Positions 4,250 to 22,911 are shown, counted from the stretch's first letter. The stretch: DNA of 64,000 bases from an uncultured Bacilli bacterium (GCA_934101175.1 CAKOQC010000006.1:7292-71291); one strand, 5' to 3'. Notes: generated by a model from the sequence alone, not told the origin. Numbers and translations: made by a program.

Positions 4250-5581
4250 TTAATAATTTTTATATATACTTAAATCTAGAATAGTATCCTTTTTAGGATA
4301 TTTATAATAAATATATTTCATAATAGAAGTGTTGTACTGAGAATACTCATGATTTTGAGTAAATACTTCTTTTTCATCTAGAAGAAATTCACACTGATTA
4401 TTTTTGCAAATATTTTCTATTTCATTAATAATACCAGTACTTCCTGATGAACCAAGATTGCCATCATTTAATAAATCATACTTAGTTATAGGTAGATTTG
4501 CTTCTAATTTTATAAGATAACTATTCTTATTAATAATAAATATTTTTTTATCTTTATTATCATCTAAATAAGTAATTATAGTGTCTAAATATTCTTTAAA
4601 GTATTTACTATGAGGTATGATACGATATTTTATTAAATTAATATCATTTAGGAATGTATAATCTTTATACTTTAGTAGATAAGCACTATTAGAAAAACTA
4701 TATATAATGAATACTAGGAAAGAAATTTGAAGAATTTTTTTAGATAGTTTTAGATTATTTAGAAAGTATCCTAATGAAGGGATAAAGGCTATCATAGTAT
4801 GATATCTATCTATTATGGGATAAGCAAATAGTAGAAAACTTATTAAATAGATTATCTTTATATCTTTAGTTTTAAAATATTTAATTATTAAGTAGATAAA
4901 TGAAGTTATTAATAGAAAGATACCTACTGGTTCTGTTACTAAATTATCTTTAGCAAATGATTTTATTCCTAAGAAACAATAATCTATAAAATTATATAAG
5001 ATATTATTTTTAATTAGATAGATTAGAAAGATAATGTTAGGAATAAGAAAGCCTACTATTCTTTTGAAGATTTTCTTATAATTTTTTATAAATAAAGTAG
5101 GAAGACACAGATAGATACCTACATTTTGTTTAGTTAAGAAGGTTAAGCCTAGAATAAATCCTAATAAGTAATCGTTTTTATGATTGTTTTCTAAGTCCAT
5201 TAAGATATAGAGAAATAATAGACATAGTATAGAATAATATGGACTACTATATGGCATAAGTAATAAGTATATTAAATAGTAGCTTTTATGATTTTGCTTT
5301 TTCATATAATAGAAAATTATAGTACATATGATGGCATTAAATATATGAAATGTTAGAAAACTATTACCAAACATTTTTAGAATTAGGGCATTTATCATGG
5401 GATACAAAGGTGTTATTACCATATTGAAGTCTTTATATGGAATAAGTCCGGTATAAATATTATAAGCAAAACCATAATTCCATACTTCATCATGAGTTAC
5501 TTCATTACATAGTAAGTTAAATAATAGGGTTATGATAAAGATTAATAATAATTCTAATAAGGATTGTTTATGTTTATTCAT
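4250..5581 (-). CDS. Polytopic integral membrane protein, possibly GT-C fold glycosyltransferase/polymerase-like
   Basis: 443 aa with >10 predicted TM helices. It has an acidic loop motif 'HDEVWNYG' near the first periplasmic loop, as in the PMT/ArnT-like GT-C enzymes. No soluble catalytic domain was recognized. Confidence 0.3.
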   Translation of the reverse strand: MNKHKQSLLELLLIFIITLLFNLLCNEVTHDEVWNYGFAYNIYTGLIPYKDFNMVITPLYPMINALILKMFGNSFLTFHIFNAIICTIIFYYMKKQNHKSYYLIYLLLMPYSSPYYSILCLLFLYILMDLENNHKNDYLLGFILGLTFLTKQNVGIYLCLPTLFIKNYKKIFKRIVGFLIPNIIFLIYLIKNNILYNFIDYCFLGIKSFAKDNLVTEPVGIFLLITSFIYLIIKYFKTKDIKIIYLISFLLFAYPIIDRYHTMIAFIPSLGYFLNNLKLSKKILQISFLVFIIYSFSNSAYLLKYKDYTFLNDINLIKYRIIPHSKYFKEYLDTIITYLDDNKDKKIFIINKNSYLIKLEANLPITKYDLLNDGNLGSSGSTGIINEIENICKNNQCEFLLDEKEVFTQNHEYSQYNTSIMKYIYYKYPKKDTILDLSIYKNY

Positions 5582-5642: not shown

Positions 5643-6617
5643 TTATAACTCTAATTTACTAATAAAATCTTTTAATTCGAATGTATTTTCTATACGATCA
5701 TTTAATGGTGGCATGTTATAAGCTATTTTTGAACGAGATTCAAATTCAAAGTCACTTACATCTTTTGGTGTTAATAAACTTTTGTTTAGAACGATTTTTT
5801 TACCTTCTAATTTATCAAAAGTATTTTTATTTATTAGCATCATTTTATTTAGTTTAATTGTGCTAGGTTCTATTAAGTATATTACTTCATCACATAAACT
5901 TTCACCAGTAGAATTATTTAAGTCTACTAGTATCATGTTAGCATTGCCAAACTTGTTAATAGCAGCATTTAAGTTTCCTTGATTTACAGAATACATATCT
6001 CTTTCATTGAAATATCCAAAATCATTTTTATTTACTTCAATGGCTACAACATAGTCTTTTTGTGATAGAATTTTCTTTAACATATATATTAGGGTTGTAG
6101 CACCAGCACCATTTGTCATATTTTTGAATCCTATAACACGAGCACTTCTTGAAGAGTGGAATTGTGGTTCTTCATCATCTTTGTGGAAGAATCTACTCTT
6201 CTTTTCAGGCTTGCTAGTATCTTCTGTATTAGCATCCATATCTAATTGATGGATATGAGCTACATCTTTATAAGTATTAGGATGATTATATAGATACATT
6301 AGTGATTCTTTATCTTTACCAAAGTTATATATTCCCATACTTATTAATTTTGATAAGTAACTATTATCATTAATTAAATTATTATCTAATAATACTATTA
6401 CTTTATCCATTTCTAAGCCCATGGATAATTTTTGAATATTAGAAATATCATGATAATTTTTAAGGGCTGTTATATCTAAGAACATTCGATTAAAAAAGAA
6501 ATTAGAGAATGTGCTTATTAATTCATCAGCGGTAAATTCTCCATTTATTGATTTAATTACGTCGATGTCTAGATTTTCTAACAATCCTTTGTTTTTATTT
6601 GATACGATTACATTCAT
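5643..6617 (-). CDS. TadZ/CpaE-like pilus assembly protein (pseudo-receiver N-domain plus degenerate MinD/ParA-like ATPase domain)
   Basis: It is the last gene of the Tad operon. The C-terminal half carries a deviant P-loop-like 'VIGFKNMTNGAGATTLIYMLKKIL' and a MinD-like fold pattern. The N-terminal ~110 aa is receiver-like and lacks a classic acidic pocket. Confidence 0.4.
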   Translation of the reverse strand: MNVIVSNKNKGLLENLDIDVIKSINGEFTADELISTFSNFFFNRMFLDITALKNYHDISNIQKLSMGLEMDKVIVLLDNNLINDNSYLSKLISMGIYNFGKDKESLMYLYNHPNTYKDVAHIHQLDMDANTEDTSKPEKKSRFFHKDDEEPQFHSSRSARVIGFKNMTNGAGATTLIYMLKKILSQKDYVVAIEVNKNDFGYFNERDMYSVNQGNLNAAINKFGNANMILVDLNNSTGESLCDEVIYLIEPSTIKLNKMMLINKNTFDKLEGKKIVLNKSLLTPKDVSDFEFESRSKIAYNMPPLNDRIENTFELKDFISKLEL

Positions 6618-6635: not shown

Positions 6636-7148
6636 TTATTTCTCTCTAACAACTACTCTTGTTTCTCCAGATATTTTCCATAATCCTTGAATGACGTCTT
6701 CATCATCAGCACGTCCTCCGAAAGTAAGAATGTTGTTTAGAAATGGTAAGCTCCAGCCAACATATGTAGATACTTCATAGTACATACCTTTAGTGTTTTT
6801 AGCTTTTCCAGCTTCACGAATAACTATTCCTAATTGGTTACAATGTGCAACTTGTCTTCCAGCATCATTAGTCATATTTATTTTATCGCAAATATTTCTT
6901 TCACTAAGATTATAATTCATATTACCTAATATTTCATCAGTTAGGAACTTTTCGAAATCTTGCATTTTCTTTCCGGTTTGTAATTCTGAAATGCTAGTAA
7001 TTTCATTTTCTTCAATGTAATCAATAATTTTATTTTTTACTTTGAAGGCTTTTGCATAGTTTAGTGAAATTGCTATAAAACCTACATATATAACTATAAA
7101 TACTAAGAATATTTTGACCATAAAGGCTCCGCCAAAGGCATCCTTCAT
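6636..7148 (-). CDS. Small membrane-anchored protein of the Tad operon (TadE/pseudopilin-like candidate)
   Basis: It has a single N-terminal hydrophobic helix 'VKIFLVFIVIYVGFIAISL' followed by a soluble domain. It lies immediately downstream of the pilin gene. Confidence 0.3.
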   Translation of the reverse strand: MKDAFGGAFMVKIFLVFIVIYVGFIAISLNYAKAFKVKNKIIDYIEENEITSISELQTGKKMQDFEKFLTDEILGNMNYNLSERNICDKINMTNDAGRQVAHCNQLGIVIREAGKAKNTKGMYYEVSTYVGWSLPFLNNILTFGGRADDEDVIQGLWKISGETRVVVREK

Positions 7149-7190: not shown

Positions 7191-7349
7191 TTATTTTTGA
7201 TTATACCCAGCAGTGTTTCCACCTTGGCCCCATAATCCACCAATAGTGTTTTGGATATTTCCCCATTGACTTGCTAAGATAGCTCCGATTACACCAATGG
7301 CTACTAATGTTACAACAGTCATTGATACTTCACCAGTTGCTTCTTTCAT
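7191..7349 (-). CDS. flp: Flp/Fap-family pilin-like small protein (52 aa), absent from the ORF track
   Basis: The reverse strand translates as 'MKEATGEVSMTVVTLVAIGVIGAILASQWGNIQNTIGGLWGQGGNTAGYNQK'. It is preceded by a strong RBS (GGGAGGTG, 7 nt before the ATG). The short charged leader plus hydrophobic helix is Flp-like. It sits between tadC and the TadE-like gene. Confidence 0.55.
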   Translation of the reverse strand: MKEATGEVSMTVVTLVAIGVIGAILASQWGNIQNTIGGLWGQGGNTAGYNQK

Positions 7350-7423: not shown

Positions 7424-8215
7424 TTAACCGCCAATCATTGTAAATGACGCTATTAACATCAATACTAGAGCGGCTCCACCAGTACATACTAACATTTTCA
7501 TGGTCATGTTTTCCATGGTAGTTAATCTGGCTTGATATTTTTGCTCTCTGGCTTTTAATTGAAGAGCAGATACAGTTTTAGAGAAAGATAACATTTGCTC
7601 ATGTTTTTTATCTTGTTCTCCTAAACTTAAACGATATAATAGACGCATCATTCTCATTGAATCTCTAACTGGATATTGATTAGCAAAATCCATATATGGA
7701 TCAACAGATGAGTCACCATTTTCTATTTTAGCTACTAATTCACGAAGTCCTGGTTTGAATACTTCAGGAGCATCTTCAATAGATCTAGCAAGAGCTACTG
7801 GTACAGTATAGTGTTGTACTAATACCTCTAAGCTTTTTAAATAGTATGGTAATAATGAATCTATAGTATTTAAATTTTTTTTATAAAATTTCTTTAAATC
7901 TAAATATTGTGATTTAAATACAAAATATCCAAAAGCAATAGATATTAATATATATAATGGTTTTAAATCAGAGATGAAGATAAAGAGCATGATAACCATG
8001 GCTGCTAGACCTTGCATTACTCTTTTTCTGAATACTTGTCCAACATCATATATTTTATCACCATATTTTGTTCTTAATAGAAATTCATAATCTTTTTCTT
8101 GAAGTAATTGAAATATTCCTTTATTTTCTCCAAAGAATTTAGTAGTACTTATAGTACCATTATAGATAAAGATAAAGAAGACAATTACTCCTACTAATAA
8201 TAATTCTAAATGCAT
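7424..8215 (-). CDS. tadC: Tad pilus inner-membrane platform protein TadC (T2SS-F domain)
   Basis: TM segments flank a cytoplasmic domain ('LLPYYLKSLEVLVQHYTVPVALARSIED...DFANQYPVRDSMRMMRLLYRLS'), as in GspF/TadC. It is adjacent to tadB and cpaF. Confidence 0.65.
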   Translation of the reverse strand: MHLELLLVGVIVFFIFIYNGTISTTKFFGENKGIFQLLQEKDYEFLLRTKYGDKIYDVGQVFRKRVMQGLAAMVIMLFIFISDLKPLYILISIAFGYFVFKSQYLDLKKFYKKNLNTIDSLLPYYLKSLEVLVQHYTVPVALARSIEDAPEVFKPGLRELVAKIENGDSSVDPYMDFANQYPVRDSMRMMRLLYRLSLGEQDKKHEQMLSFSKTVSALQLKAREQKYQARLTTMENMTMKMLVCTGGAALVLMLIASFTMIGG

Positions 8216-9111
8216 TATTCAGCCCCCACATTCTCATTATAGTACTTCTCTCCTTTTAATAGGAAGTAACTATTTATTAGGACAACACCATGTACTAATA
8301 TTTTCATAATGACATTGTCTAACATTTCGATATAGGATTCTACTCCTAGAATTAATTGGATTAACATTATTAATGAATATAAGGTTACTCCAAATACTAG
8401 GAATTGTCTGTGGAATTGTTTTCTGTCTGATCTATCACGATATACTCCTTCTACTAAGATATCGATATCATTTAACATGTTATCGAAGGTATCTTCAGTA
8501 TTTTTAGCACCTTCTTTAGTTACTTGAAGGAATAATTGATGCATGTTTTTTACCATGTAATATGGATATTTAGCATTCATGTAATTGATTGATTCAGTTA
8601 CATCGCCTTTTTCATATGATAAAGCTATCATTGTTTTAACGTCAGATAATACTGGTTCATCAAGTACTCCTGATTCTACAACACCTTCAAGAGCTTTAAT
8701 GAACGATTGGGTAGTATTAAATTCCATAATAGTATTAGTTGTATATACTTGTATTTGTTCAAAAATAAATTCACTATATTGTCTTTTACATCTTAAATAT
8801 GTTAAATATGGAATAGTAGCTACTGCTATTATGGCATATATAATTACTACTACTAAGTTATAGAAATATAGATAACCAATAACTCCTGCTACTACAGCAA
8901 ACATAGTTACTTGAATAGTATATTGTCTAGTGGTATATTCAAGTCCTAACTCTTTAATTTTTTCACGCATTACTTTATATGAGTATGGTGCAAATTGGTC
9001 ATAGGCAACAGTAGCTTGGCTTTGTAAGAACTTATATATTCCTTCACCAGAACTATTTCTATATGTTACTACAAATATTAAGATAAGACCTATTATTATA
9101 AATATTCCCAT
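8215..9111 (-). CDS. tadB: Tad pilus inner-membrane platform protein TadB (T2SS-F domain)
   Basis: It is a polytopic protein with a T2SS-F-like topology and is translationally coupled to tadC (shared 8215). Confidence 0.6.
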   Translation of the reverse strand: MGIFIIIGLILIFVVTYRNSSGEGIYKFLQSQATVAYDQFAPYSYKVMREKIKELGLEYTTRQYTIQVTMFAVVAGVIGYLYFYNLVVVIIYAIIAVATIPYLTYLRCKRQYSEFIFEQIQVYTTNTIMEFNTTQSFIKALEGVVESGVLDEPVLSDVKTMIALSYEKGDVTESINYMNAKYPYYMVKNMHQLFLQVTKEGAKNTEDTFDNMLNDIDILVEGVYRDRSDRKQFHRQFLVFGVTLYSLIMLIQLILGVESYIEMLDNVIMKILVHGVVLINSYFLLKGEKYYNENVGAE

Positions 9112-9130: not shown

Positions 9131-10624
9131 TTAATTATTTGGCAAATTATTTATTTGATTTGGATTATTTATTATTTGATTAGGAATGTTGTTAATCATT
9201 TGTTGTTGATTAGGAACACTCCCATATTGATAAGTATTTACTTGATTTGGGTTTACTACGTTATAATTTTGATTAACTTGATTAGTTGGGTTAATCGCTT
9301 GTGGATTTATACTCTTTGGTGCTATATTTTGTGGTTGATTATTCATTATTGGTGTTTGATTATTTTGATTAGGTACTGATACTTGTACTTGCGATTGTGG
9401 TTTTGGCGTAGCAACATTTGGAGTTTTGGTAGATACTACAGTTTGATTAGTAGTGACACCATTAGTTGGTGCTGATGATGGAATGGTTTCTTTAGCAGCA
9501 TCAATATTAGTAGGATCTACTTTATACTCATTAGTAGCTTGATCAATATTTTCATCAGCTGATTTGAACTCCTCTTTTACTAAGATATCTGGTTGCATGA
9601 TTAAGCCTTGGCTTTCTAGGTATCCTAAGAGATATTTTGTAGGGTTATGTAAAGTAAATTTACCATCAGGTGTTTTCTTATAAAGAATATTAGTTTTAGG
9701 TTCATTGTCTTCAGTAACATAGAACTCTACTACTTCAGCAATTTCACGATGAAATCTTTGTCTTTCTTTACTATAATATCCTTTAACGTGAACTCCTAAT
9801 TGAACATATCTATGAATACTTCTTAGAAATTGTTCTAGGTCAATATTACTTTCTAGCAAACTATATAATCTACTAGGAATAGATGCAGCTTTATCAGCAT
9901 GAATTGTTGATAAGATGTTGTGTCCTGATGATATAGAGTTACGTACGGCCATTACGGCTTCGGCACTTCTTACTTCGGATAGTAATATCCATCTTGGATT
10001 CTGTCTCATACAGGTAACAAGTACATCTGAATAACTAGCTATATTATTAGTTTTCATAGCTACGATATCTCTTGTTGGAAATATTTTATCAAGGTGAAGC
10101 TCAAGAGTATCTTCAATAGTAATTATTTTTTCATTTTCTTTAGTGTGAGCTGCTAAGTATTTGATAAACTCTGTTTTACCACTACCAGTTTCACCACTTA
10201 CTAAGATGTTACAGTGTCCTTCAACGCATTTCATTAAGAAATCGTGAATATCTAATCTGATATAATCATCTTCAATAATTTTTTCTTTTACTAATCTTAT
10301 TTTAGCTGGTGTTTTACGTACTAACAAGGCAATGCCATTTCTAGCTATGGAATCATGAACGAAGTTAAGACGTAATTCAGCACTTTCGGCATCAAGAAAG
10401 GGATTGGCCATATTGAAGGACTTACCCATCGTGTTAGCACACTGAAAGGCTATTTTTTCTATTAAGGTATTATCGATTCCTGTATTCTCTACTCGATATA
10501 CTCCTTTTGACAAGGTCTTTATCCATACCTGCCCACCATTACTATAGGATATATCGGTAACATCATCATTATCCAAAAATTGTTTTAATGGTCCAAAATC
10601 GACTTGTTGAAATTGTGCATCCAT
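9131..10624 (-). CDS. cpaF: CpaF/TadA secretion ATPase (VirB11/GspE superfamily) with an N/Q/P-rich C-terminal extension
   Basis: Walker A is 'ILVSGETGSGKTEFIKYL'. 'LSEVRSAEA' and 'STIHA' match the CpaF His/Asp boxes. The last ~110 aa are low-complexity ('NQNNQTPIMNNQPQNIAPKSINPQAINPTNQVNQNYNVVNPNQ...'). Confidence 0.85.
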   Translation of the reverse strand: MDAQFQQVDFGPLKQFLDNDDVTDISYSNGGQVWIKTLSKGVYRVENTGIDNTLIEKIAFQCANTMGKSFNMANPFLDAESAELRLNFVHDSIARNGIALLVRKTPAKIRLVKEKIIEDDYIRLDIHDFLMKCVEGHCNILVSGETGSGKTEFIKYLAAHTKENEKIITIEDTLELHLDKIFPTRDIVAMKTNNIASYSDVLVTCMRQNPRWILLSEVRSAEAVMAVRNSISSGHNILSTIHADKAASIPSRLYSLLESNIDLEQFLRSIHRYVQLGVHVKGYYSKERQRFHREIAEVVEFYVTEDNEPKTNILYKKTPDGKFTLHNPTKYLLGYLESQGLIMQPDILVKEEFKSADENIDQATNEYKVDPTNIDAAKETIPSSAPTNGVTTNQTVVSTKTPNVATPKPQSQVQVSVPNQNNQTPIMNNQPQNIAPKSINPQAINPTNQVNQNYNVVNPNQVNTYQYGSVPNQQQMINNIPNQIINNPNQINNLPNN

Positions 10625-10659: not shown

Positions 10660-11526
10660 TTATTCATTGGTATTAGTGTTTGTGTTATTTTCTTTTTTTT
10701 GTGAATCTTCAAGAGCTTTTTGCTCCATTTCATTTAACAATTCATTATATAATTCTTCTTGTCCATCAATCTTTTGAATTTTATCAAGAACGAAATCATA
10801 TAAGTAATCACTAGTTACTTCTACTGCTGCAGGATTTTTAGCATCGAATTTAACAGTATTTGGTACTAATACTACTTCTATATCATTAGTTAAGATATAA
10901 TTTAATGATGAGAATAATAAGTATTTAGCTTCTGGTAATGAGAAGTATACATATGCTGGTACTCTTGCTTCTTCAGTATTTTCAAATACGTTTTTACCTG
11001 AAGCATCTTTTACACCAAGTACTTCGATATTATCAAAGAATTCTCCATATACTAATTTACCACTATTGTCATATAATTTTACATATACGTCTACAATATT
11101 TCCAGGCATAATTGAATTTCCATATGTAGTAACTGTGTCTACTGGGAAACTAACAACTCTTTCACCTTCGTTAGTGTTGTATAATACAGCATCTGGTAAA
11201 TTTCCTTCAGATACTAATAAATCTGAATAGAAGATACTACCAGCGGCAATCATTGTATTGTAGTTACTATATTTTCCTACAATGTCATTATAATTTTTAT
11301 AATATGTTCCTTTAATGAATGCTCCTGGTACTCTTGTTTTAGATACCATATCTTCAGTAATTAAAGTCTTAGGTTGTATTGTTTGGTTTGCATAGTATAC
11401 ATCTACTAATGCAGTTTTTTTGTTGATACTAGTTGTATAACCAACATAAAGAATAATTAAACATAGCAATATTCCTAAGATGGTTACAGTATTTTTGTTT
11501 TTTAAGAACTTGTTAAAATTTTTCAT
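10660..11526 (-). CDS. cpaB: CpaB/RcpC-like Flp pilus assembly protein (SAF domain)
   Basis: An N-terminal TM anchor is followed by a SAF-like segment 'ALVDVYYANQTIQPKTLITEDMVSKTRVPG'. It lies upstream of cpaF. Confidence 0.55.
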   Translation of the reverse strand: MKNFNKFLKNKNTVTILGILLCLIILYVGYTTSINKKTALVDVYYANQTIQPKTLITEDMVSKTRVPGAFIKGTYYKNYNDIVGKYSNYNTMIAAGSIFYSDLLVSEGNLPDAVLYNTNEGERVVSFPVDTVTTYGNSIMPGNIVDVYVKLYDNSGKLVYGEFFDNIEVLGVKDASGKNVFENTEEARVPAYVYFSLPEAKYLLFSSLNYILTNDIEVVLVPNTVKFDAKNPAAVEVTSDYLYDFVLDKIQKIDGQEELYNELLNEMEQKALEDSQKKENNTNTNTNE

Positions 11527-11546: not shown

Positions 11547-12005
11547 TTATTTATTATCCTTTTTTACTTTATCACACTTGTAGCAATCTAAGATTGCGGA
11601 TAATTCATTTATAACATTTGTTTGAGTAGCATCTATGTCTACACTAAAAGTGTTATATATATTATAAGAATTTGTGGCGTCCACGATGCGAATACTAACT
11701 TTAGCAGGATATTCACTTATTTGATAGTAGTAAATATCATAGTTTCCTTGACCGAATGTTGATGTTTCTGTAAATCTTCTTGTAAAGTTTTCGACAAATT
11801 TTTCTTGGCTTATTTTTATTTGTCCACTTAGTCTATAGTAAGCAACATCTACAGATTCAATCATTGCAGCTTCGGTAGCTTCTTTTAAAGTGTAGTAATC
11901 TTGCTCATTACTTACGGTTATTTCGCTAAATAAGAGTATGATTACAATTCCAAATATTCCCATGACAATGACGCCAACTGATGCAAAGGACCATTTCATG
12001 GGCAA
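11547..12005 (-). CDS. Small membrane-anchored protein (TadE/pseudopilin-like candidate)
   Basis: It has an N-terminal hydrophobic helix 'FASVGVIVMGIFGIVIILLF'. Its start overlaps the end of the upstream Cys-rich gene. Confidence 0.3.
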   Translation of the reverse strand: MPMKWSFASVGVIVMGIFGIVIILLFSEITVSNEQDYYTLKEATEAAMIESVDVAYYRLSGQIKISQEKFVENFTRRFTETSTFGQGNYDIYYYQISEYPAKVSIRIVDATNSYNIYNTFSVDIDATQTNVINELSAILDCYKCDKVKKDNK

Positions 12006-13831
12006 ATCTCTCCTTTTTTATTATTTTTACATCTTGGTTGGTATATTGGATTTTTGATGGTATGTTTACTATCTAGATATTCACATTGATTTTCTACTCC
12101 ACATCCTAGTGAATAGAATGAATCTTTAGTAATAGTACTATTTCTATTAATAATGTTTTGACTAGTTATAAACATACTACCTCCATTTATACTCATCTTG
12201 CTCCAATCTGTATATAAATTCTCTTTATTATAATTTCTAATAAAATCTAAATTAATATTAGTTGTGGCATAAGTAACAGTATTAAATGATTTATCTATTT
12301 CAGGATCTTCTTGATTAATCTTTTCATCTTCGCCCCATTTTTCCCAATCACTATATTTAGTTATTCCATTAGGAAAAGGATTAGTTATATCTATTGGACG
12401 ATAATAAAAGTTAAATCCAATAATTTCTGACTTTTTGCTGTTTTTATCATCTGATACCTCATTATAAAATCTTTGTTTTATCTTAATATCAATATTAGTG
12501 TTATAGTAACATCCGCCCGCTTTTTCTACTTTATTAATAGCGTCCTGAATACTTCCTTCAGGTAAGTTAGTATTAAAGCTTCCATTTCTTGATGGTGAGA
12601 TATACTTAGCATATTCATGATTTTTAGAATATTTCTTGATTAGTGCTGTACAAATACCTACTGATGTTTCTTTATTATTAGCTTTCATTATAAATTTATA
12701 ATTATCTGTTTCTTTGGTATTTAATGGTATGAATACGTGCCAATGTTTATTTTGTTCACTGTCTGTTTCATTTTTGACATAATACCACTCTTCTCCTTTA
12801 TCACGGCAAGGATTTTCATCATTTGCATTTACGGGTGAAGTTAAGTATTCAACTTTGCCACTTTTGGCATTAATACATGCTCCATATAATTCGTAGCAAT
12901 AATTTTTAATTACATTGTTTCCATTTTGTCTACTTTCATAATATGATGTTGGTTTTTCTCCAACGGCTACAGCTTGATATGTAGTACATACTTCATTATC
13001 ACCTGAACCATATTTATAGCCATCTTCTTTTCCAAAACATTTAGCTTCGTTTGGATCATAGATATCTACGGTATAACTTACTCCGCCGGTTACTGCTGCT
13101 ACTGCTGAATTATATCCTTGATGTAGTGCTGTATTGTTGCATCCTGCATGTTCTTGGGTTTTAGTTACGTGTTCTATTCTTTCACTTTGCCAGTCACGAC
13201 AAGATTTACCATCTTTGTCACATTCAAAGTGATATGTTTTTATGATTTTTTCGCAATCATAAACTCCTAGACCATGACCATAATAAGTAGCCTGTCTTTT
13301 TTCACAAAGATTAGCTCCCATATATGTTCCTGATAGTACACCAAATGAACTTTTTAATGGTTCATTAAACATATCGTATAAGTCCCAAGTAACAGTCATT
13401 TTTTGATTTGTTACGCCATATGTTATTGAACAGGCTTGAAATGTACACTTCATACTATCGATGAATTCATCATGTTCTTCATTACCATCGTCACCGTCAT
13501 CGTCACCACCAGGGGTATCATCATCGTCATCTTCTCCATCGCCACCGCCGTTAGAATTATTAGGGTCCGGATCAGGCTTTGGGTCTGGTTCTGGTTTTGG
13601 ACAAGGATTACAATCTTGATCTTCTCCAGGTTGTACTTCGTTGTTATCAGTATCTACAGTGAATCCACCATTTGTGTCTGCATCATCTGTTGTTGTTTCT
13701 TTTTGAGTTGTTTCTGTGCTATCACCTTCTGCTGGCTCATTAGCATATGTAATATTTATTCCTGTAAAATATAGAAAGGTAGCTATTGCCATTAGTATTA
13801 ATATGGTACTCTTTAAGGTCTTCTTTGTCAT
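11996..13831 (-). CDS. Large secreted acidic low-complexity plus cysteine-rich protein (paralogue 1 of 2), pilus-operon associated
   Basis: It has a signal peptide, then a D/E/G/P-rich region ('CPKPEPDPKPDPDPNNSNGGGDGEDDDDDTPGGDDDGDDG'). A ~450-aa domain with ~20 Cys follows ('CTFQACSITYGVTNQ...DLYDMFNEPL...GANLCEKRQATYYG'). It is paralogous to 14613..16496. Confidence 0.5.
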   Translation of the reverse strand: MTKKTLKSTILILMAIATFLYFTGINITYANEPAEGDSTETTQKETTTDDADTNGGFTVDTDNNEVQPGEDQDCNPCPKPEPDPKPDPDPNNSNGGGDGEDDDDDTPGGDDDGDDGNEEHDEFIDSMKCTFQACSITYGVTNQKMTVTWDLYDMFNEPLKSSFGVLSGTYMGANLCEKRQATYYGHGLGVYDCEKIIKTYHFECDKDGKSCRDWQSERIEHVTKTQEHAGCNNTALHQGYNSAVAAVTGGVSYTVDIYDPNEAKCFGKEDGYKYGSGDNEVCTTYQAVAVGEKPTSYYESRQNGNNVIKNYCYELYGACINAKSGKVEYLTSPVNANDENPCRDKGEEWYYVKNETDSEQNKHWHVFIPLNTKETDNYKFIMKANNKETSVGICTALIKKYSKNHEYAKYISPSRNGSFNTNLPEGSIQDAINKVEKAGGCYYNTNIDIKIKQRFYNEVSDDKNSKKSEIIGFNFYYRPIDITNPFPNGITKYSDWEKWGEDEKINQEDPEIDKSFNTVTYATTNINLDFIRNYNKENLYTDWSKMSINGGSMFITSQNIINRNSTITKDSFYSLGCGVENQCEYLDSKHTIKNPIYQPRCKNNKKGEICP

Positions 13832-14508
13832 TCTAATCGCCTACTTTTCTTAAATGATTTGACTTTTAGAATGATAGTAACTGTAGCTAATATAGCAAAA
13901 ATACTTATAGCAATAATAATTACTAAGTGTGAATTAATATAATCAATTATTTTATCAATAAAACTTATACTATCTTCATTATTCTTAGAATTATTATCTT
14001 TATTTCCATTAGATGTATCTTTTGAATTATCATCTTTTGTTAAGCTCTTCTTATAAGTTTCAACTCTAGATTTAAATTCTTCTTCAGTTAATTCTTTTTC
14101 ATAGTCAGGTTGACATAAAGCAAATTCTTCAATACCATTACATAATTCACTTTCAGAAAACTTATTATATTTTTCAACTTCAGGTGCTTTCACAGTTTCT
14201 TTACAATTTTTTCCTATTACTATGACATCATAATTTATTTTGTCAGTGCCAACACATGTTATATTGTTTTCATCAATAACTTCACATTTAATTCTTGATG
14301 TTGAATATATATCATATTTAAACAATGTTGGAGCAGGATTGTATATTTTAAAAATGTATTGATTATTTTCTATATAGTAAGTCGCTTTAATTTTTGATTC
14401 TAAATCATTAAATTCTTTTAACTCTGATTCAGTACATGAGGCATACGCTTTACTACTAAAGAGAATAAATAACATTAATAAAAATACTAAATATTTTCTT
14501 TTTAACAT
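13828..14508 (-). CDS. Small secreted Cys-containing protein with C-terminal TM anchor (paralogue 1 of 2)
   Basis: The signal peptide ends in 'KAYA|SC'. A ~170-aa ectodomain has 6 Cys. The C-terminal anchor is 'LVIIIAISIFAILATVTIIL' followed by 'KVKSFKKSRRLE'. It overlaps the next gene by 4 nt. It is paralogous to 16493..17179. Confidence 0.5.
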   Translation of the reverse strand: MLKRKYLVFLLMLFILFSSKAYASCTESELKEFNDLESKIKATYYIENNQYIFKIYNPAPTLFKYDIYSTSRIKCEVIDENNITCVGTDKINYDVIVIGKNCKETVKAPEVEKYNKFSESELCNGIEEFALCQPDYEKELTEEEFKSRVETYKKSLTKDDNSKDTSNGNKDNNSKNNEDSISFIDKIIDYINSHLVIIIAISIFAILATVTIILKVKSFKKSRRLE

Positions 14509-14565
14509 AATACCTCCTTTGCTTACTCTCCTACTATTAAAAGTATAGCATAATTGTTTACAAAA

Positions 14566-14596
14566 AAAAAGACTTTTTTAGTCTTTTTTAGATAAA
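14566..14596. terminator. Bidirectional rho-independent terminator between the two duplicated gene pairs
   Basis: The sequence is 'aaaaaaaaagacttttttagtctttttta'. A perfect hairpin aaaagact/agtctttt is flanked by A- and T-runs. Confidence 0.6.
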
Positions 14597-14612
14597 TTAG
14601 TGGCTGTTTATT

Positions 14613-16496
14613 TCATTTATAACTACTTGTAGGACATATATCATTCTTTTTATTATTCTTACATCTTGGTTGATATATTGGATTTTTAATTTTTTGTTCT
14701 TTATCTAGATATTCGCATTGATTTTCAATACCGCATCCTAGGGAATAAAATGTTTTATTGGTAATTAAACCATTTCTATCTATAATATTATCTTTTTGAA
14801 TAAAGATACTACTACCATCTATATTCATTTTACTCCAATCTGTATATAGGTTTTCTTTATTGTAATTTCTAATATAACTTAAGTTAATATTGGCAGCTGC
14901 ATAAGTAACGGTATTAAATGATTTGTCTAATTCTGGATTTTCTTTTCCTTGTTTTTTATTTTCATTCCATTTTTCCCAATCACTATATTTTGTTATACCA
15001 TTAGGGAAAGGGTTATCTAGACTTATTGGTCTATAATAGAAGTTAAATCCTATTAACTCTGAGGTATCTTTATTATTGCTAGCTACTTCGTTATAGAATC
15101 TTTGCCTTAAACTAACATTAATTGTTGATTTATAATAACAACCATTCTTAACTAAATTTATATCACTCTTATTTTTATTAAATGATCCTATAGCAGGAAC
15201 TATATATTTAGTATATTCGTAATTTTTAGAATATTTTTTAATAATAGCAGCACATAATTTACTAGATTTCTCTTTTGTCTTAGACTTCATTGAAAATTGA
15301 TAATCGTTCGTTTCTTTGGCGTTCAATGGTATAAAGATATGCCAATGACGATCACTTTCATCTTTATAGTCATTCTTGACATAGTACCATTCATCTCCTT
15401 TGTTACGGCAAGGGTTTTCATCTTCTTTACTTACTGGTTCTGTCAAATATTCGACCATACCTGTTTTAACATTAATACATGAGCCATATAATTCATAGCA
15501 ATAGTTTTTGATTACAGTATTACCTTTGTTTTTACTTTCTTTATAACTTGTTGCTGTTCCGCCAATAGCAACAGCATGATAAGTTTTACAAATTTGACTT
15601 TCTTCTTTACCATATTTATAGCCGTCAGGTTTATCATAACATTCTGCTTCATTAGGATCAGAAATGTCAACAGTATATAACTCTTCACCAGACAGAAGTG
15701 ATAATGCCGTTTGATATCCGCCTCGTAATGCTGCTTCAGTACAGCCAGAATCTGGATATGATGCTGTACGTGTTTCTATTCTTGTTTCATAGTGACACAC
15801 ATATTCATAACGTATCCCATATTTATCAATTGAAACTGTAATGTCACATACCTGATATTTTACATTTCTTTTACATGAATAATTCATACTTCCAGAACCA
15901 TAATACACTGCTTTTCGCATTTCACATAAATTGGCACCGATATGAGTACCCGCTAAAACTCCAAATTTTGATGTCAATGGTTCATTAAACATATCATACA
16001 ATTGACCTTTTACTTCTACTGAATGTTGTGATACTCCGTAATCTAGACTACAAGATGTAGCAGTACATTCCCATTCACCTTCTTGTTTCTTAGTTTCATG
16101 TATCAATTCTTCTTCAAGCTTGTCTATATCTACTTTATCATTGTGACTATAGTTATTATCTTTTTCTTCTCCTTCGCCACTACCACCTCCTCCTGTATTG
16201 GTGTTGTTATTATCCTGAGGCTCATTACCACAAGTAGTACATTTACCATCATCGCCATTTTCATCATTTCCACCATCATCGCTACTATCAGTATTATCAT
16301 TAATATAATCCCCACTAAAATGTATGCCGCCATCACCGCCGCCTTCACCGCCACCATCACCGCCACCATCACCGCCACCACCACTTTCGGCTTGCTCTCC
16401 TTCTTCAACAGCATATACAAGACTTTGAATTGTAAACGAAAGAAATGTTGAAATAGCTAACAGTAACAAAAAAAGCACTTTAATCTTTCTTTTCAT
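14613..16496 (-). CDS. Large secreted acidic low-complexity plus cysteine-rich protein (paralogue 2 of 2)
   Basis: It has a signal peptide, then 'GGGGDGGGDGGGEGGGDGG' repeats. A Cys-rich domain follows ('CTATSCSLDYGVSQH...QLYDMFNEPL...GANLCEMRKAVYYG'). The C-terminus '...YSLGCGIENQCEYLD...NPIYQPRCKNNKK' is conserved with paralogue 1. Confidence 0.5.
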   Translation of the reverse strand: MKRKIKVLFLLLLAISTFLSFTIQSLVYAVEEGEQAESGGGGDGGGDGGGEGGGDGGIHFSGDYINDNTDSSDDGGNDENGDDGKCTTCGNEPQDNNNTNTGGGGSGEGEEKDNNYSHNDKVDIDKLEEELIHETKKQEGEWECTATSCSLDYGVSQHSVEVKGQLYDMFNEPLTSKFGVLAGTHIGANLCEMRKAVYYGSGSMNYSCKRNVKYQVCDITVSIDKYGIRYEYVCHYETRIETRTASYPDSGCTEAALRGGYQTALSLLSGEELYTVDISDPNEAECYDKPDGYKYGKEESQICKTYHAVAIGGTATSYKESKNKGNTVIKNYCYELYGSCINVKTGMVEYLTEPVSKEDENPCRNKGDEWYYVKNDYKDESDRHWHIFIPLNAKETNDYQFSMKSKTKEKSSKLCAAIIKKYSKNYEYTKYIVPAIGSFNKNKSDINLVKNGCYYKSTINVSLRQRFYNEVASNNKDTSELIGFNFYYRPISLDNPFPNGITKYSDWEKWNENKKQGKENPELDKSFNTVTYAAANINLSYIRNYNKENLYTDWSKMNIDGSSIFIQKDNIIDRNGLITNKTFYSLGCGIENQCEYLDKEQKIKNPIYQPRCKNNKKNDICPTSSYK

Positions 16497-17179
16497 TCTA
16501 AATACCTACTCTTTCTTATAGCTTTAATCTTTAGAACAATTGTGATTATTAATAATATAGCAAAGATGGAAATTACTATAATAGTTGTTAAATGATCTTG
16601 AATATATTTAATAATATTATTTATTAAAGTTATCTTTGTTTTATTTGTATTGTTATTATTGTCGCTTGAATTATCATCTTTAGTTTCATTTTTTTTGTTC
16701 AACCCTTTTTTATATGTTTTTACTCTTGATATAAATTCTTCTTCTGTTAATTCTTTATCATAATCTGGATTACACAAAGTAAAATTCTCTATACCATCAC
16801 ATAATTCGCTTTCGGAAAAATTGTTGTATTTTGTGATAATTATAGGCTCTTGATTAAATGCTGTAGTACAATTACTATCATAACTTTTGACTGACACATT
16901 ATATTCACCATTTACTTCTCCGATGCATTTACTATTATTTATATCTATAATTTCACAGTTCAATTTGTTTGTTGTTTTAATTTCATATTTAAATACGTCT
17001 GGATCCGGATTGTATATTTTTAAAACATATTTGTTATTTTCAATATAATGAGTTACTTTAAACTGAGATTCTAGCTCTTTAAAACGATTTACTTCTTCTT
17101 CAGTACATGATGCATTTACTGTATTACTAAAGAGAATAAATAATGTTAATACAAATAATAAATATTTATTTTTATTCAT
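16493..17179 (-). CDS. Small secreted Cys-containing protein with C-terminal TM anchor (paralogue 2 of 2)
   Basis: The signal peptide ends in 'VNA|SC'. 'YIENNKYVLKIYNPDP' and 'FSESELCDGIENFTLCNPDYDKELTEEEF' are conserved with 13828..14508. The C-terminal anchor is followed by 'RKSRYLE'. Confidence 0.5.
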   Translation of the reverse strand: MNKNKYLLFVLTLFILFSNTVNASCTEEEVNRFKELESQFKVTHYIENNKYVLKIYNPDPDVFKYEIKTTNKLNCEIIDINNSKCIGEVNGEYNVSVKSYDSNCTTAFNQEPIIITKYNNFSESELCDGIENFTLCNPDYDKELTEEEFISRVKTYKKGLNKKNETKDDNSSDNNNNTNKTKITLINNIIKYIQDHLTTIIVISIFAILLIITIVLKIKAIRKSRYLE

Positions 17180-17424
17180 AAAATCACTCCCAAAAAAATC
17201 TTCAAATATTCTACTTTACAGTTCTTTGTTATAGCTAAATTATACTATAAACAAAGAGATTGTGCAATAATAATTAAAATTTTTTTGACAAGAAATCAAG
17301 ATTATTTTTTTCTGTAAATGATGATATAAATTCAATGTTTTCAAGGGTTATCAAATATTTATAGCGTTACTTTTCTTTCTTATAAAAATTATTATAAATA
17401 AGAAAATATTACATATACTTTAGT

Positions 17425-18090
17425 ATGAAAAAAGAAAAGATAATAATTATATTATATTTATTTATAACTATACTATCTATATCAAATGTTTATGCTGATA
17501 TTAATAATTATGATTTATTAGGGAAAGTAATTTATCTAGATCCTGGACATGGTGGTATTGATAGTGGAACTACTTATAAGAATATTTATGAAAAAGATAT
17601 TAACTTAGTACTATGCAAAAAACTATATCAAGAGTTAACTAATAGAGGTGCTAAGGTATACTTAACTAGAGAAACAGATAAAGATTTATCAGTATCTAAG
17701 AAACATCGTAAACGTAGTGATTTAATTAGTAGAGCATATTTAATTAATAAGACTAAGCCTGATATGTATATATCTATTCATTTAAATTATATATCTAATA
17801 CTAAGTGGAAAGGATTACAAGTATTTTATACTAATAAGAATAAAGAAAATAAAGAAATAGCTAATAAGATTACTAGTTATATGAAAGAAAAGACTTCTAA
17901 TGTTAAAGATCCTAAAGAGAATAATACTTATTATATGTATAAGAATATTACTACTCCGGGAGTATTAATAGAAGTAGGATTTTTATCAAACCCTGATGAT
18001 AGATATAGATTAACTCATGAAGAATATCAGGATAAATTAATTTCTAATCTAACTTATAGTATTGTTAAATATTTTAAAGAAAAAGACTAA
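17425..18090 (+). CDS. cwlD: N-acetylmuramoyl-L-alanine amidase (Amidase_3), germination-specific CwlD-like
   Basis: It has an N-terminal signal anchor and 'VIYLDPGHGGIDSG', the Amidase_3 zinc-binding motif. Length is ~220 aa, as for CwlD. The genome is that of a spore-former (spoIIR nearby). Confidence 0.65.
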   Translation: MKKEKIIIILYLFITILSISNVYADINNYDLLGKVIYLDPGHGGIDSGTTYKNIYEKDINLVLCKKLYQELTNRGAKVYLTRETDKDLSVSKKHRKRSDLISRAYLINKTKPDMYISIHLNYISNTKWKGLQVFYTNKNKENKEIANKITSYMKEKTSNVKDPKENNTYYMYKNITTPGVLIEVGFLSNPDDRYRLTHEEYQDKLISNLTYSIVKYFKEKD

Positions 18091-20398: not shown

Positions 20399-20698
20399 TT
20401 ATACTATTGGGGTTCTTTCAGGAATGGTAATTTCTTCAAATGAACTGAAATCTTCATTTATTTTACTATTTAATTTTTTATAGTTATTATCAGTTTTTTG
20501 ATAGTTTTCTTTTATTCCTTTAAGATCACTTTTAAATTCTGCTACTATTCCAGAAAATCCTTCTAGGACGCTATCTGAAATTTCATCAGGGATGTCAAAA
20601 GTTACTGTTGATAGTGATTTTATTTTATTCTCAGCAAGAGTACTATTTTTTTCTTGACTTTTTAATAATCCTAATTCGGGATATGTTACTTTTGTCAT
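20399..20698 (-). CDS. Small T7SS-associated helical protein (99 aa)
   Basis: It is the last gene of the essC-esaB-WXG operon and is 4-nt coupled to the upstream gene. Confidence 0.3.
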   Translation of the reverse strand: MTKVTYPELGLLKSQEKNSTLAENKIKSLSTVTFDIPDEISDSVLEGFSGIVAEFKSDLKGIKENYQKTDNNYKKLNSKINEDFSSFEEITIPERTPIV

Positions 20699-21003
20699 AT
20701 GTTATTATAATCCTCCTCTGCTTGACTTTGTCTTACACAGGTATCAACGCTACTAGCAGTAGCTATTAATTTACTAGCAAATTCTTTTAATGAATCATAG
20801 AAATCTAGGTATTGTTGTTTATCTAAAGCTACGATTTGAACATATTTGTCAGCTTTAGTTCCGCGCCATGACCTATCATCTGTAGGAATGGTTGTTAATT
20901 TTTTAAACAAATTAGTTATTTCTATGTTATATTCATTTGCTATATCAATTATTTCATTACCTATGTCAGTAATATTTTTACTATCAGCATATGTAAAATT
21001 CAC
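20695..21003 (-). CDS. WXG100-family small secreted protein
   Basis: It is 102 aa and helical, with a central 'SWRGTKADKY' (W-x-G) motif. Confidence 0.45.
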   Translation of the reverse strand: MNFTYADSKNITDIGNEIIDIANEYNIEITNLFKKLTTIPTDDRSWRGTKADKYVQIVALDKQQYLDFYDSLKEFASKLIATASSVDTCVRQSQAEEDYNNI

Positions 21004-21338
21004 TTTTTACCACCTCTTTTGGCCGCAGCCGCAGCTGCAGCTGCAGCTAACTTTCTTAATTCTTCAGCAATTAAGGCATTTAACTGAGCTATTCTGGCAT
21101 TTACTTTAGGTACGGTCACGTTATTTAGGTGATTTTTTACTTTATTAACCGAATTTGCGGCATCAATAACTCTTTTATGAGTTTTTGTTTCATCACCATC
21201 AATATTATAGCTTTGTGCTACTGATAATGCAGTACTTTGGTATGTTCCTTCTAAACTAGATAGCGTACTAGTAGTACTAGCAATAGTTCCTAGTAGAGCT
21301 TTACATTTAGCTAATTGTTGATAATAGTATCCTAACAT
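21000..21338 (-). CDS. Small helical T7SS-cluster protein with C-terminal poly-Ala/basic tail
   Basis: It is 112 aa and ends in '...LRKLAAAAAAAAAKRGGKK'. Confidence 0.3.
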   Translation of the reverse strand: MLGYYYQQLAKCKALLGTIASTTSTLSSLEGTYQSTALSVAQSYNIDGDETKTHKRVIDAANSVNKVKNHLNNVTVPKVNARIAQLNALIAEELRKLAAAAAAAAAKRGGKK

Positions 21339-21356
21339 ATTGTGACCTCCTTATTC

Positions 21357-21827
21357 TTAGTCTAGGCTTAATCCTTGAGCAGCTGATCTTATTTCTTGTG
21401 CATTTGATGAAGTACTTTGTGCTACGTTTTGTTGACCTTCTTGCCATTGTTTATATGCTTGTTTTGCTTTGAAAGCTTCAAGACGCATTGTATGTACATA
21501 TGCTTGTAACAAAGTCTTAGCAGCAGTAACGAATTCTGTTACAGCTTGTTGAGTATCTCCTTTAAAAGCTACAGCAGTATTAGCAGCAGCGTTGAATTCA
21601 GCTATTTGAGCTTCAATTGTATCACAATATCTATAAATTGCTGGAACTAGAGTACCTTCTAATTCAGCTTCGCTGATTCCAACAAATCCTCCATTCCATA
21701 ATCCAGATATACCAGCATTTAATGTACCAATAACGCTTTCTAATCTTGACTTTCCTTGGGTAATTGCTGATTGAACATTATTTCCAACTGCTGATCCAAC
21801 ATTTTGTAATCCACTTTGTATTGACAT
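21357..21827 (-). CDS. WXG100-like helical protein (156 aa)
   Basis: It has a 'GLWNGGF' motif within a helical hairpin context. Confidence 0.4.
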   Translation of the reverse strand: MSIQSGLQNVGSAVGNNVQSAITQGKSRLESVIGTLNAGISGLWNGGFVGISEAELEGTLVPAIYRYCDTIEAQIAEFNAAANTAVAFKGDTQQAVTEFVTAAKTLLQAYVHTMRLEAFKAKQAYKQWQEGQQNVAQSTSSNAQEIRSAAQGLSLD

Positions 21828-21856
21828 TTTTTCTCCTCCTTTACTATATGTTATTA

Positions 21857-22165
21857 TTAATTAAAATTTATACTTTGGTCTACGTCGATCATTCCACCGC
21901 CTGATGCATGTAATCCACCTACAACGGCATTTCCAGCTTCTTCTAATGCTTTAATTACTTGATTAGCATCTTCTTGAACTTTGTCTTTAAATTTATTTGC
22001 AGATTGTCCAACCCATGCTTGGTCTACTGAAATGTTAATGTTAGCTAAACCAGTACGCATTGCTGAAATAGTATTAGCTATGCAATTTACATTTATTTCA
22101 TTGATTAAATGTTGTAGTCCTTCTGAATCATAACCGAATGTTGAATTTTCAAAATTTAGTGCCAT
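21857..22165 (-). CDS. WXG100 family protein (EsxA/EsxB-like)
   Basis: It is 102 aa, with 'VDQAWVGQSANKF' (W-x-G) at the expected central position. Confidence 0.6.
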   Translation of the reverse strand: MALNFENSTFGYDSEGLQHLINEINVNCIANTISAMRTGLANINISVDQAWVGQSANKFKDKVQEDANQVIKALEEAGNAVVGGLHASGGGMIDVDQSINFN

Positions 22166-22167
22166 CC

Positions 22168-22533
22168 TTAATCCACCTCCTTAACTTTGCTTTTCATATC
22201 TTCAACAGTTCCTTTTCCTTGATTAGCGATATTTGTTAATTCTCTATCGCCTTCAGCCATCTTTCTATTTAGTATACTCATATCGTCAGAATATGAAATA
22301 GCATTTCCTTTAATTATTGAATAATTATCTTTAAGGCTTTGATATTTTTCTTTGATTACTTCTAGAGCGTCACATTCAAGATAACTCTCTAAAGTTTCAA
22401 ATTTTTCATCTAGCTTATCGAAAAGAATTGATAGATTATCAGCGCTTGTCATAAAATCAAGAGCTAATTTTTCTAAGCCTTCACTATTAATTGCTAGATT
22501 TATTTCTTGTTCACTTACTACTTGACTACTCAT
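22168..22533 (-). CDS. Small helical T7SS-cluster protein (121 aa)
   Basis: It lies immediately downstream of esaB. It has no W-x-G motif and is EsxC/D-like by size and position only. Confidence 0.3.
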   Translation of the reverse strand: MSSQVVSEQEINLAINSEGLEKLALDFMTSADNLSILFDKLDEKFETLESYLECDALEVIKEKYQSLKDNYSIIKGNAISYSDDMSILNRKMAEGDRELTNIANQGKGTVEDMKSKVKEVD

Positions 22534-22650
22534 AAATCACCTCTTATTAATTATTCTTAGAGTACATACATTCTCTACTCTAAATTTATTATTACACGTA
22601 TTTTTTTGTTTGTAAAGTTTTTTTGTTTTAGCATTTACATTATTTGTAAA

Positions 22651-22911
22651 CTATTTAGAATCTAATACTAATTCAGTACCATTTCTTATATCAGTATTTC
22701 TTATGGCAATACTATCAGAATATAATTCAGATGTTTTTCGGTTATATAGATATACTTTATTCTTAATAGGATATACTCCATTAGTAATATTATTAATTAG
22801 TCTATTTATTAGGGTATTTACTTGACTAACTGTCTTATTGATAGGGATATACATTTCATAATTTTTTTCTATTTCAGGGACATATAGTTTAATTAATACT
22901 TTATATTCCAT
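22651..22911 (-). CDS. esaB: EsaB/YukD ubiquitin-like T7SS protein
   Basis: It is 86 aa ('MEYKVLIKLYVPEIEKNYEMYIPINKTVSQ...'), the size and beta-grasp-like pattern of YukD. It is directly downstream of essC. Confidence 0.6.
   Translation of the reverse strand: MEYKVLIKLYVPEIEKNYEMYIPINKTVSQVNTLINRLINNITNGVYPIKNKVYLYNRKTSELYSDSIAIRNTDIRNGTELVLDSK

Follow-up and report, generated by a model that had tools for sequence, protein, structure and literature searches.

Tad-type pili are key colonisation factors, and how they come by their binding specificity is poorly understood, especially in Gram-positive bacteria. That variable modules can customise a type IV filament is already known. The PilY1/PilC proteins are large, Sec-exported non-pilins with a conserved C-terminal docking region and a variable N-terminal binding region, tied to minor pilin genes and present in some species as several alternative sets; in the PilV shufflon of the R64 thin pilus, alternative adhesin specificities for one type IV pilus lie as adjacent cassettes, some of them inverted, and the C-terminal segments of the minor pilin are switched within the cell by the site-specific recombinase Rci. 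In Myxococcus xanthus, the Kil/Tad system carries 'Tips', TadE/TadF/TadG-like minor pilins (KilL/M/N) that are interchangeable and disulfide-rich and that customise Tad pili (PMC12075869), whilst Miller et al. (2022) predicted an uncharacterised 'secretion-related' DUF5411/CpaF/PilC-like operon in Roseburia, Ruminococcus and Eubacterium, which also holds an adhesin-like (internalin-like) gene (PMC9523054). Here we consider a locus that can be set beside all four: a stretch of 64,000 nucleotides from an uncultured Bacilli bacterium (GCA_934101175.1, CAKOQC010000006.1:7292-71291; hereafter the window), in which two tandem gene pairs, each encoding a small anchored protein and a large secreted Cys-rich protein, head an operon whose predicted products point to a very divergent Tad-like type IV filament system of the DUF5411 type.

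A first, sequence-only reading of the window had placed two paralogous pairs on the minus strand, and the open reading frames (ORFs) proved exact. Pair A consists of small A (16493-17179, minus; 228 amino acids, aa) and large A (14613-16496, minus; 627 aa), pair B of small B (13828-14508, minus; 226 aa) and its cognate partner large B (11996-13831, minus; 611 aa). Their similarity is far above chance expectation: the large proteins share 51% aa identity over their full length (E = 0) and the small ones 54% (E = 4e-74), and at the DNA level the two units are in register, with a period of ~2.6 kb and 70-81% identity. From the ORF, a transmembrane (TM) scan and the family alignment, small A comprises a signal peptide, an immunoglobulin (Ig)-like ectodomain, a conserved Cys-containing membrane-proximal segment, a low-complexity linker, a TM segment and a basic tail. 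The features claimed for the small proteins, namely an N-terminal signal peptide, six Cys, a C-terminal TM segment and a basic tail, were all recovered; the signal peptide is of Sec type with a conserved AxA|xC site, all six Cys are aligned (6/6), and the tails, KSRRLE or KSRYLE in the two window proteins, follow a nearly invariant pattern, K-x-x-(R/K)-K-S-R-(R/Y)-L-E. A lipoprotein reading of the small protein was discarded, as the position -1 to the Cys may be D, T or S and the AxA site is conserved, and no LPXTG motif precedes its TM segment.

The large proteins begin with a signal peptide of Sec/signal peptidase I type (K-rich n-region, h-region, conserved AxA site), followed by an acidic Gly/Asp/Glu/Pro linker, and the mature proteins have isoelectric points of 4.7-5.1. 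In large A, the linker is of the GGGD low-complexity type and leads into a Cys-rich domain of ~480 aa; in large B, residues 1-30 form the signal peptide, 31-115 the acidic low-complexity linker, ~116-450 a variable β-rich domain and 451-611 a constant domain with the motifs QxFYNE, GFNFYYRPI, NPFPNG and YSLGCG. Each copy has 20 Cys, 19 of which are aligned between the two, so the ~20 conserved Cys of the sequence-only reading hold between copies, though not across the family, where only ~11 are kept. No C-terminal hydrophobic segment was found in the large protein. With a Sec-type signal peptide on the large protein and a C-terminal anchor on the small one, neither is a pilin. The 4-nt overlap and translational coupling suggested within each pair were borne out by an ATGA at both small/large junctions (13828-13831 in pair B), and a further ATGA overlap, read directly from the sequence at 11996-11999, joins large B to the DUF5411 gene, whose true ATG lies at 11999.

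Is the pair truly part of the operon that it heads? We looked for its occurrence without Tad genes and found no such locus, and the pair was adjacent to the operon in every locus with enough flank: the proposed link is real and general. In 10/10 GTDB species-representative loci - from metagenome-assembled genomes (MAGs) of uncultured Bacilli, 'Tenericutes' and Erysipelotrichaceae in human, goat, buffalo and rumen samples - the small and large genes lie directly 5' of genes for DUF5411, CpaB, the ATPase, TadB/C-like proteins, an Flp-like protein, p170 (x2) and p324, although in one of them (L010) the pair has diverged so far that only its position and a short motif identified it. Metagenome loci with enough flank show the same order of pair, DUF5411, CpaB and ATPase (L018 is without downstream flank), and all 14 loci retrieved through DUF5411 instead of the large protein hold the pair in the same position. 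Overlaps are kept in 11/11 loci for which junction coordinates were read, at 4 nt from small to large and at 4 or 1 nt from large to DUF5411; such conserved stop/start overlaps point to a fixed stoichiometry with the machine. With hidden Markov models of both families, each large gene was seen to be preceded by its cognate small gene, and neither the loci nor the window yielded further paralogues. In most other species, there is just one pair. Like the operon predicted by Miller et al., the locus combines DUF5411 and a CpaF-type ATPase with otherwise unrecognisable neighbours, and in the window DUF5411, a T2SSE-type ATPase and polytopic proteins meet in conserved order; unlike that operon as published, it includes the small and large Cys-rich pair and cassette polymorphism, and its lineage is one of uncultured Bacilli/Erysipelotrichaceae-like MAGs. 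Two loci carry disrupted copies. In L002 (8566-8879), the last ~38 codons of a large gene are fused to the first 66 codons of DUF5411 upstream of an intact pair, a remnant that speaks for a past duplication or recombination including the large/DUF5411 junction; in L024 (1723-2505), three consecutive ORFs take the place of one small gene, either a pseudogene or the product of metagenome assembly errors.

The duplication in the window is one state of an array that is polymorphic between strains, with one to three cassettes of three types, one of them inverted. Conspecific loci were taken as contigs whose flanks are 97-99.8% identical to the window in nucleotide sequence. Amongst these, the arrangement A+B is found in the window, L011 and L033; inverted C, then A and B, in L012, L025-27, L029, L030 and L034; and inverted C, a 44-codon small-gene remnant and B in L016, L028, L031 and L032. 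The 44-codon ORF that lies between inverted C and B in these last four loci (8913-9047 in L016) matches the first 32 positions of the small-protein profile, and is the leftover of a deleted cassette A. Cassette types A, B and C are 39-57% identical to one another; large proteins measure 548-631 aa, and among the alleles listed it is mainly the N-terminal linker that differs in length. The large proteins of types A and C also bear an extra xSxYK tail beyond the ...CP terminus of type B (window 14613-14640; L012 ~6595-6615); the DNA at these 3' tails weakly resembles the CCCATGAAATGG large/DUF5411 junction, a hint that the duplicated unit formerly extended just into DUF5411. The array is like the R64 shufflon in that several alternative specificities would be held as adjacent cassettes, some inverted, and unlike it in that variation occurs here between strains, via homologous recombination and cassette gain or loss. 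A shufflon or other invertible element was ruled out, there being no significant inverted repeats and no recombinase nearby.

No other genes in the locus vary nearly as much as those for the small and large proteins. Across species, these two proteins are 30-40% identical, as against 70-90% for core proteins; between conspecific strains, core synonymous divergence (dS) is 0.01-0.09 and that of the cassettes reaches 0.24-0.65, with ratios of nonsynonymous to synonymous divergence (dN/dS, omega) of ~0-0.2 for the core and 0.2-0.5 for the cassettes. Local cassette values of 0.9-1.45 are confined to the linker and the surroundings of residues 181-240, and over whole cassette genes omega is not above 1. 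In the large protein, variable columns lie chiefly within the first ~300 aa, and the last ~300 residues show essentially no variation among strains; in the small protein, such columns gather in the Ig domain and linker. A second, very prevalent species with a single cassette repeats this pattern, its large proteins being 77-96% identical and the compared core proteins 98-100%. Blocks are exchanged between alleles: one pair is identical save for residues 121-300, with two sub-blocks at dN ~0.5 and 0.14 and dS ~0.7 and 0.15 (omega 0.7-0.9 in the sub-blocks; 0.6-0.9 for the swapped block). The variation of the large and small proteins thus consists of old alleles shuffled by homologous recombination, a pattern typical of surface-exposed molecules under frequency-dependent selection.

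The two halves of the large protein also differ in what they vary with. We ran partial Mantel tests on pairwise distances among 12 species-level loci, controlling for CpaF/TadB/TadC divergence and taking p from permutations. The variable half of the large protein co-varies with the small Ig domain (partial r = 0.78, p = 0.0002), as against 0.10 with DUF5411 (p = 0.23) and 0.08 with p170, a candidate minor pilin (p = 0.26). The constant half co-varies with DUF5411 (partial r = 0.57, p = 0.002), with the TM segment and tail of the small protein (0.52, p = 0.004) and with p170 (0.45, p = 0.004); its values with the Flp-like protein (-0.22) and with the small Ig domain (0.10) are not significant. 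These co-variations would fit a model in which variable parts bind variable parts and constant parts bind the machine, and we treat that fit as suggestive.

Neither protein could be placed in a described family. As the sequence-only reading had it, no known domain was found in either by Pfam, NCBIfam and PDB searches: in Pfam and NCBIfam they returned nothing beyond sub-threshold noise (TrbC, PARP, TafF, CD1108), and profiles of both family alignments found no match among PDB sequences. Homology searches placed neither in a well-characterised family unrelated to pili; the spore-coat idea found no supporting homology and was set aside, all that points to it being the conserved Amidase_3 gene nearby and, in some loci, DUF421. 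Among 5.8 billion proteins, a word-indexed search picked out 31 relatives for the large protein and 13 for the small, nearly all from metagenome assemblies and none named, and a profile search with the large family against 1.84 billion representatives (clusters at 50% identity) gave 363 at E <= 1e-3, 206 of them at E <= 1e-30. For ten representative large clusters that we looked up, 'hypothetical protein' was the sole name given, and the ten longest members of the family yielded no confident Pfam match and no extra Pfam domains. Relatives of the large protein come only from metagenomes and MAGs, most with gut sample labels. Conserved throughout the large family are the ~11 Cys and the motifs AGTxIGxxxxE, HWHxFIPLN, QxFYNE, GFxFYYRPI, NPFPNG and YSLGCGPxN, the strongest of them in the C-terminal third; 165/165 aligned members carry the same conserved motifs, in which aromatic residues, Gly, Pro and Cys prevail and no enzyme-like pattern stands out. 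The structure search suggested for both proteins did yield Ig-like sandwiches, though of a generic sort that designates no specific family. In the small protein, the ectodomain is modelled at a pLDDT (predicted local distance difference test) of 85-93 as a helix, a seven-strand Ig-like sandwich and a conserved Cys-containing helical segment, with generic filamin/Ig matches only; models of both families contain only generic Ig-like β-sandwiches, of the kind found in adhesins. The literature searched on DUF5411/PF17424 and on Tad systems in Erysipelotrichaceae does not describe these proteins, and the tad locus of Bulleidia is of a different type from that of the window.

Synteny, translational coupling, the division of the proteins into hypervariable and constant regions, the cassette polymorphism between strains and co-variation between named regions are all established, and the small and large proteins are best explained as cognate partners in a two-protein module outside the cell, an integral and co-translated part of a divergent DUF5411-type Tad-like machine in a wall-bearing lineage of gut Bacilli. 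What would such a module do? We posit that the pairs are interchangeable specificity or adhesin modules shown by a monoderm Tad-like filament, an idea that we rate a little short of an even chance. Sec would export both proteins, judging from their predicted topology; the small one would stay held in the membrane by its C-terminal anchor, near the machine, and with its variable Ig-like domain may hold, or prime, the N-terminal, variable half of the large protein that belongs to it. Docking on the conserved pilin-like parts DUF5411 and p170 would fall to the invariant C-terminal half, so that the filament could carry the variable half and present it on the cell surface as an adhesin or specificity determinant, the end that binds the target. 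Strains would then gain alternative specificities from arrays of one to three cassettes (types A, B and C) and from recombination of segments within the variable half, although the arrays and the recombination could equally serve escape from phage or from host antibody. That all alleles are homologous variants of one family, with Ig-like folds of the kind seen in adhesins, counted for us in favour of a specificity module. More tentatively still, we could speculate that the locus represents a new class of filament specificity module - a non-pilin, Sec-exported large protein with a C-tail-anchored, Ig-like partner, loaded through a constant docking domain - and that its strain-polymorphic, recombining arrays are what mainly sets the specificity of a strain for host, mucus or partner cells (or its contact-dependent antagonism) in prevalent uncultured Bacilli of the human and animal gut.

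Measured against described systems, the proposed module has two close parallels. As with the Kil Tips, several paralogous gene sets are tied to a Tad-type machine, each would expose a different large, disulfide-rich variable domain, and each is proposed to customise the binding of the filament. The Tips, however, are true minor pilins, with a prepilin leader and an α1N helix, forming a helix bundle at the filament tip; here we find a Sec-type large protein and a C-terminally anchored small one, with no sequence or fold similarity to the Tips, and the cassettes sit in one strain-polymorphic array with mosaic alleles. The large protein of the window shares with PilY1/PilC the same proposed layout and a genetic tie to (minor) pilin genes. 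Unlike these proteins, which belong to type IVa pili, it is associated with another class of filament in a monoderm host, and its obligatory membrane-tethered, Ig-like partner has no equivalent for PilY1; the C-terminal PilC/PilY1 β-propeller domain is absent from the pair. The literature searched does not describe the proteins themselves, their architecture as non-pilins, a tethered partner that is obligatory, a monoderm host system of the DUF5411 type, or a mosaic array that is polymorphic between strains.

Several points weigh against a filament-borne specificity module. Both proteins lack a class III (prepilin) signal and an N-terminal pilin helix, which excludes direct incorporation into the filament in the manner of TadE/F/G and makes docking hypothetical; the conserved C-terminal region expected to dock is, moreover, the least confident part of the AlphaFold2 model of the large protein (pLDDT < 50 at 454-578). 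The small protein would sit close to the membrane, on a linker of ~30 aa, so that its variability could not stem from direct exposure. Partial Mantel values are inflated by shared ancestry and by physical linkage (the 3' end of the large gene abuts DUF5411), which leaves the co-variation only suggestive, and dN/dS is never clearly > 1 outside the low-complexity linker. Finally, position and topology are the only basis for naming TadB, TadC, TadZ and Flp, and the window contains no prepilin peptidase, so filament formation is itself an assumption.

Many of the same observations could be accommodated if the large protein were instead the cargo of a machine resembling a type II secretion system, with the small protein as its private chaperone. 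The Tad-like machine would then act as a piston, pushing the Sec-exported, disulfide-folded large protein through the thick wall; the tethered small protein would be a substrate-specific holder or foldase, the constant half a secretion signal and the variable half a released effector or adhesin. A Sec signal peptide, many Cys and no anchor are what one would look for in such a cargo, the co-variation of the membrane-proximal Ig domain with the variable half and of the constant half with machine parts suits it too, and DUF5411/CpaF operons have been labelled 'secretion-related' in Clostridia (PMC9523054). On the other hand, universal one-to-one presence and coupling to DUF5411 suit a machine component better than one of several cargoes, and the conserved residues form no enzyme-like pattern. 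We know of no firm precedent for secretion by Tad-type systems, which also counts against it, and overall we regard a cargo as unlikely. If a machine component fits better, could the pair be an exposed structural part of the envelope passage? In a system with no secretin, the constant half of the large protein might oligomerise around the filament exit, the small protein would anchor the assembly to the membrane, and the exposed variable half would diversify under pressure from phage or antibody. The pair is indeed obligatory in every locus and coupled to DUF5411 and CpaB, its constant half follows the machine phylogeny, and hypervariability is common where an envelope machine is exposed. A single structural ring would nonetheless hardly be expected to come as two or three divergent paralogous cassettes in each strain, with one of these read away from the operon; no ring-forming or secretin-like fold was detected, and the acidic, disordered N-terminal linker is left without explanation. 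A conduit of this kind therefore seems to us quite improbable.

Arrays of cognate pairs that come and go between strains, with old alleles, recombination at conserved boundaries and tight co-variation of both variable parts, also call to mind contact-dependent antagonism. Myxococcus uses a Tad-like system for contact killing (PMC12075869, PMC8460266), and by analogy with Kil-type Tad killing the filament would deliver or present the large protein as a toxin, the small protein would confer cognate immunity, and extra cassettes would be additional or orphan modules. The alleles, however, are variants of one scaffold and not unrelated, swapped toxin domains; the variable part is N-terminal and the 'immunity' gene upstream, the reverse of the architecture of contact-dependent inhibition (CDI), Rhs and LXG systems, in which unrelated C-terminal toxin folds vary and the immunity gene lies downstream. 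Neither a toxin nor an enzyme family was matched in Pfam, NCBIfam or PDB, and a single operon-adjacent cassette is never missing, making a toxin-immunity pair less probable again than a conduit. There is least to be said for functionally unrelated surface-protein genes that happen to lie in a recombination hotspot beside a pilus operon. The divergent transcription of cassette C, the terminator-like hairpin after cassette A and the other envelope genes in the flank (the amidase and a cluster resembling a type VII secretion system, T7SS) could be read in this way. Adjacency in every locus examined across many species, the conserved stop/start overlap with DUF5411 and a family never seen elsewhere in the loci or the window all speak against it, and we consider chance neighbours very improbable indeed.

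The operon downstream of large B, all on the minus strand, differs in part from what had been expected. Where the sequence-only reading saw a TadE-like gene, there is instead DUF5411 (11547-11999; PF17424, 136 bits, E = 7.6e-40), with no TadE Pfam match: 150 aa from the ATG at 11999, with an N-terminal hydrophobic helix and a domain of ~110 aa. In two species loci, we observed an extended form of this protein (L008, 10867-11982, 371 aa; L010, 10516-11526, 336 aa), against ~141 aa elsewhere. Of the other Tad genes named, those for the ATPase and CpaB are recognisable, and tadB, tadC and flp have no profile match and stand by position and topology only. The CpaB-like protein (10660-11526) unites SAF and RcpC domains (Pfam RcpC 32.6 bits, cutoff 28.8; SAF 24.9, cutoff 21), and scores 46.4 bits against TIGR03177, under the cutoff of 71. 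The CpaF/TadA/VirB11-type secretion ATPase (9131-10624) matches Pfam T2SSE at 96 bits (cutoff 24.9); its best NCBIfam matches, VirB11 at 113 bits and the TadA family at 108 bits, are both under the equivalog cutoffs, so that membership holds at superfamily or clade level only. Its N/Q/P-rich, low-complexity C-terminal tail (residues ~370-497) is the only part of the ATPase that varies among conspecific strains, and differences in this tail also bring the protein to between 421 and 497 aa in different species.

The remaining products are assigned more loosely. The polytopic membrane proteins taken as TadB-like (8215-9111, five hydrophobic segments) and TadC-like (7424-8215), placed by position and topology, have no Pfam or NCBIfam match at E <= 0.1, and profiles of ten orthologues give nothing relevant among PDB sequences; size, position and 3-5 hydrophobic segments are compatible with platform proteins of the T2SSF type. 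A 52-aa Flp-like protein (7191-7349), present in all loci, has a short polar leader followed by a hydrophobic helix, and lacks both the EY of the G/XXXXEY processing motif and any Pfam match. The candidate minor pilin p170 (6636-7148) combines a conserved N-terminus, M(K/R)DAFGG, with a hydrophobic helix; the window species has one such gene, and most related species have two tandem paralogues, both starting MRDAFGG (window versus L001-L009). The soluble protein p324 (5643-6617), in the TadZ position, is conserved across loci and has no recognisable domain; like the Flp-like protein and p170, it found no match in Pfam, NCBIfam or PDB-profile searches. The putative TadZ, Flp, minor-pilin, TadB and TadC roles thus follow from size, order and hydrophobic topology. 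No candidate prepilin peptidase (A24/TadV) was found among the polytopic ORFs of the window, and the gene could sit elsewhere in the genome. Directly after p324 lies a 443-aa polytopic membrane protein with no Pfam match (4250-5581, minus), which is also present in most conspecific loci and in L002, L006, L008, L020, L035 and L038, and lies upstream instead in L010; at a guess, it may belong to the system, perhaps as a glycosyltransferase-like protein or a maturation factor.

Candidate regulatory elements are few. A promoter-like site lies upstream of small A (17239-17266, minus; TGCACA-16-TATAAT, 10/12 matches in a consensus scan), in a region that as a whole is not enriched in such sites. 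Between the pairs, we found an A/U-rich, 10-bp hairpin with a U-run (14557-14589, minus; RNA fold -10.6 kcal/mol, z = -1.55), a weak terminator-like structure, and an extended -10-like element, TGCTATACT, upstream of small B (14542-14550, minus), as read from the sequence. Because of these two elements between the pairs, pair A may be its own, leaky transcription unit.

On the other side of the array, an Amidase_3 gene (N-acetylmuramoyl-L-alanine amidase, of CwlD-like size; window 17425-18090, plus) lies directly upstream of the cassettes in nearly all loci, often with a U32 peptidase and in some loci with a DUF421/YetF protein as neighbours. Perhaps the amidase helps the filament through the wall. 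Further out is the T7SS-like cluster (window 20399-27497, minus), a 1528-aa FtsK/SpoIIIE (EssC-like) ATPase followed by ~7 ORFs of 86-156 aa with no Pfam match, which also flanks the locus in conspecific contigs and L002. The window further includes a T-box leader (142 bits; 33159-33361, minus) upstream of an 847-aa ORF (30557-33100) that is probably a valyl-tRNA synthetase, by analogy with L013 and L015, and, near the window end, a DUF3800-VIII RNA (56.6 bits; 63546-63613, plus).

To conclude, the pattern of variability and the gain and loss of cassettes between strains that are otherwise 97-99.8% identical are the signature of a molecule at the interface with host, phage or competitor. If the model of interchangeable specificity modules holds, these gene pairs would represent a non-pilin way to functionalise type IV filaments; the locus could also serve as a marker for strain typing in metagenomes, and would offer a testable handle on strain-level niche specificity in uncultured gut Bacilli.

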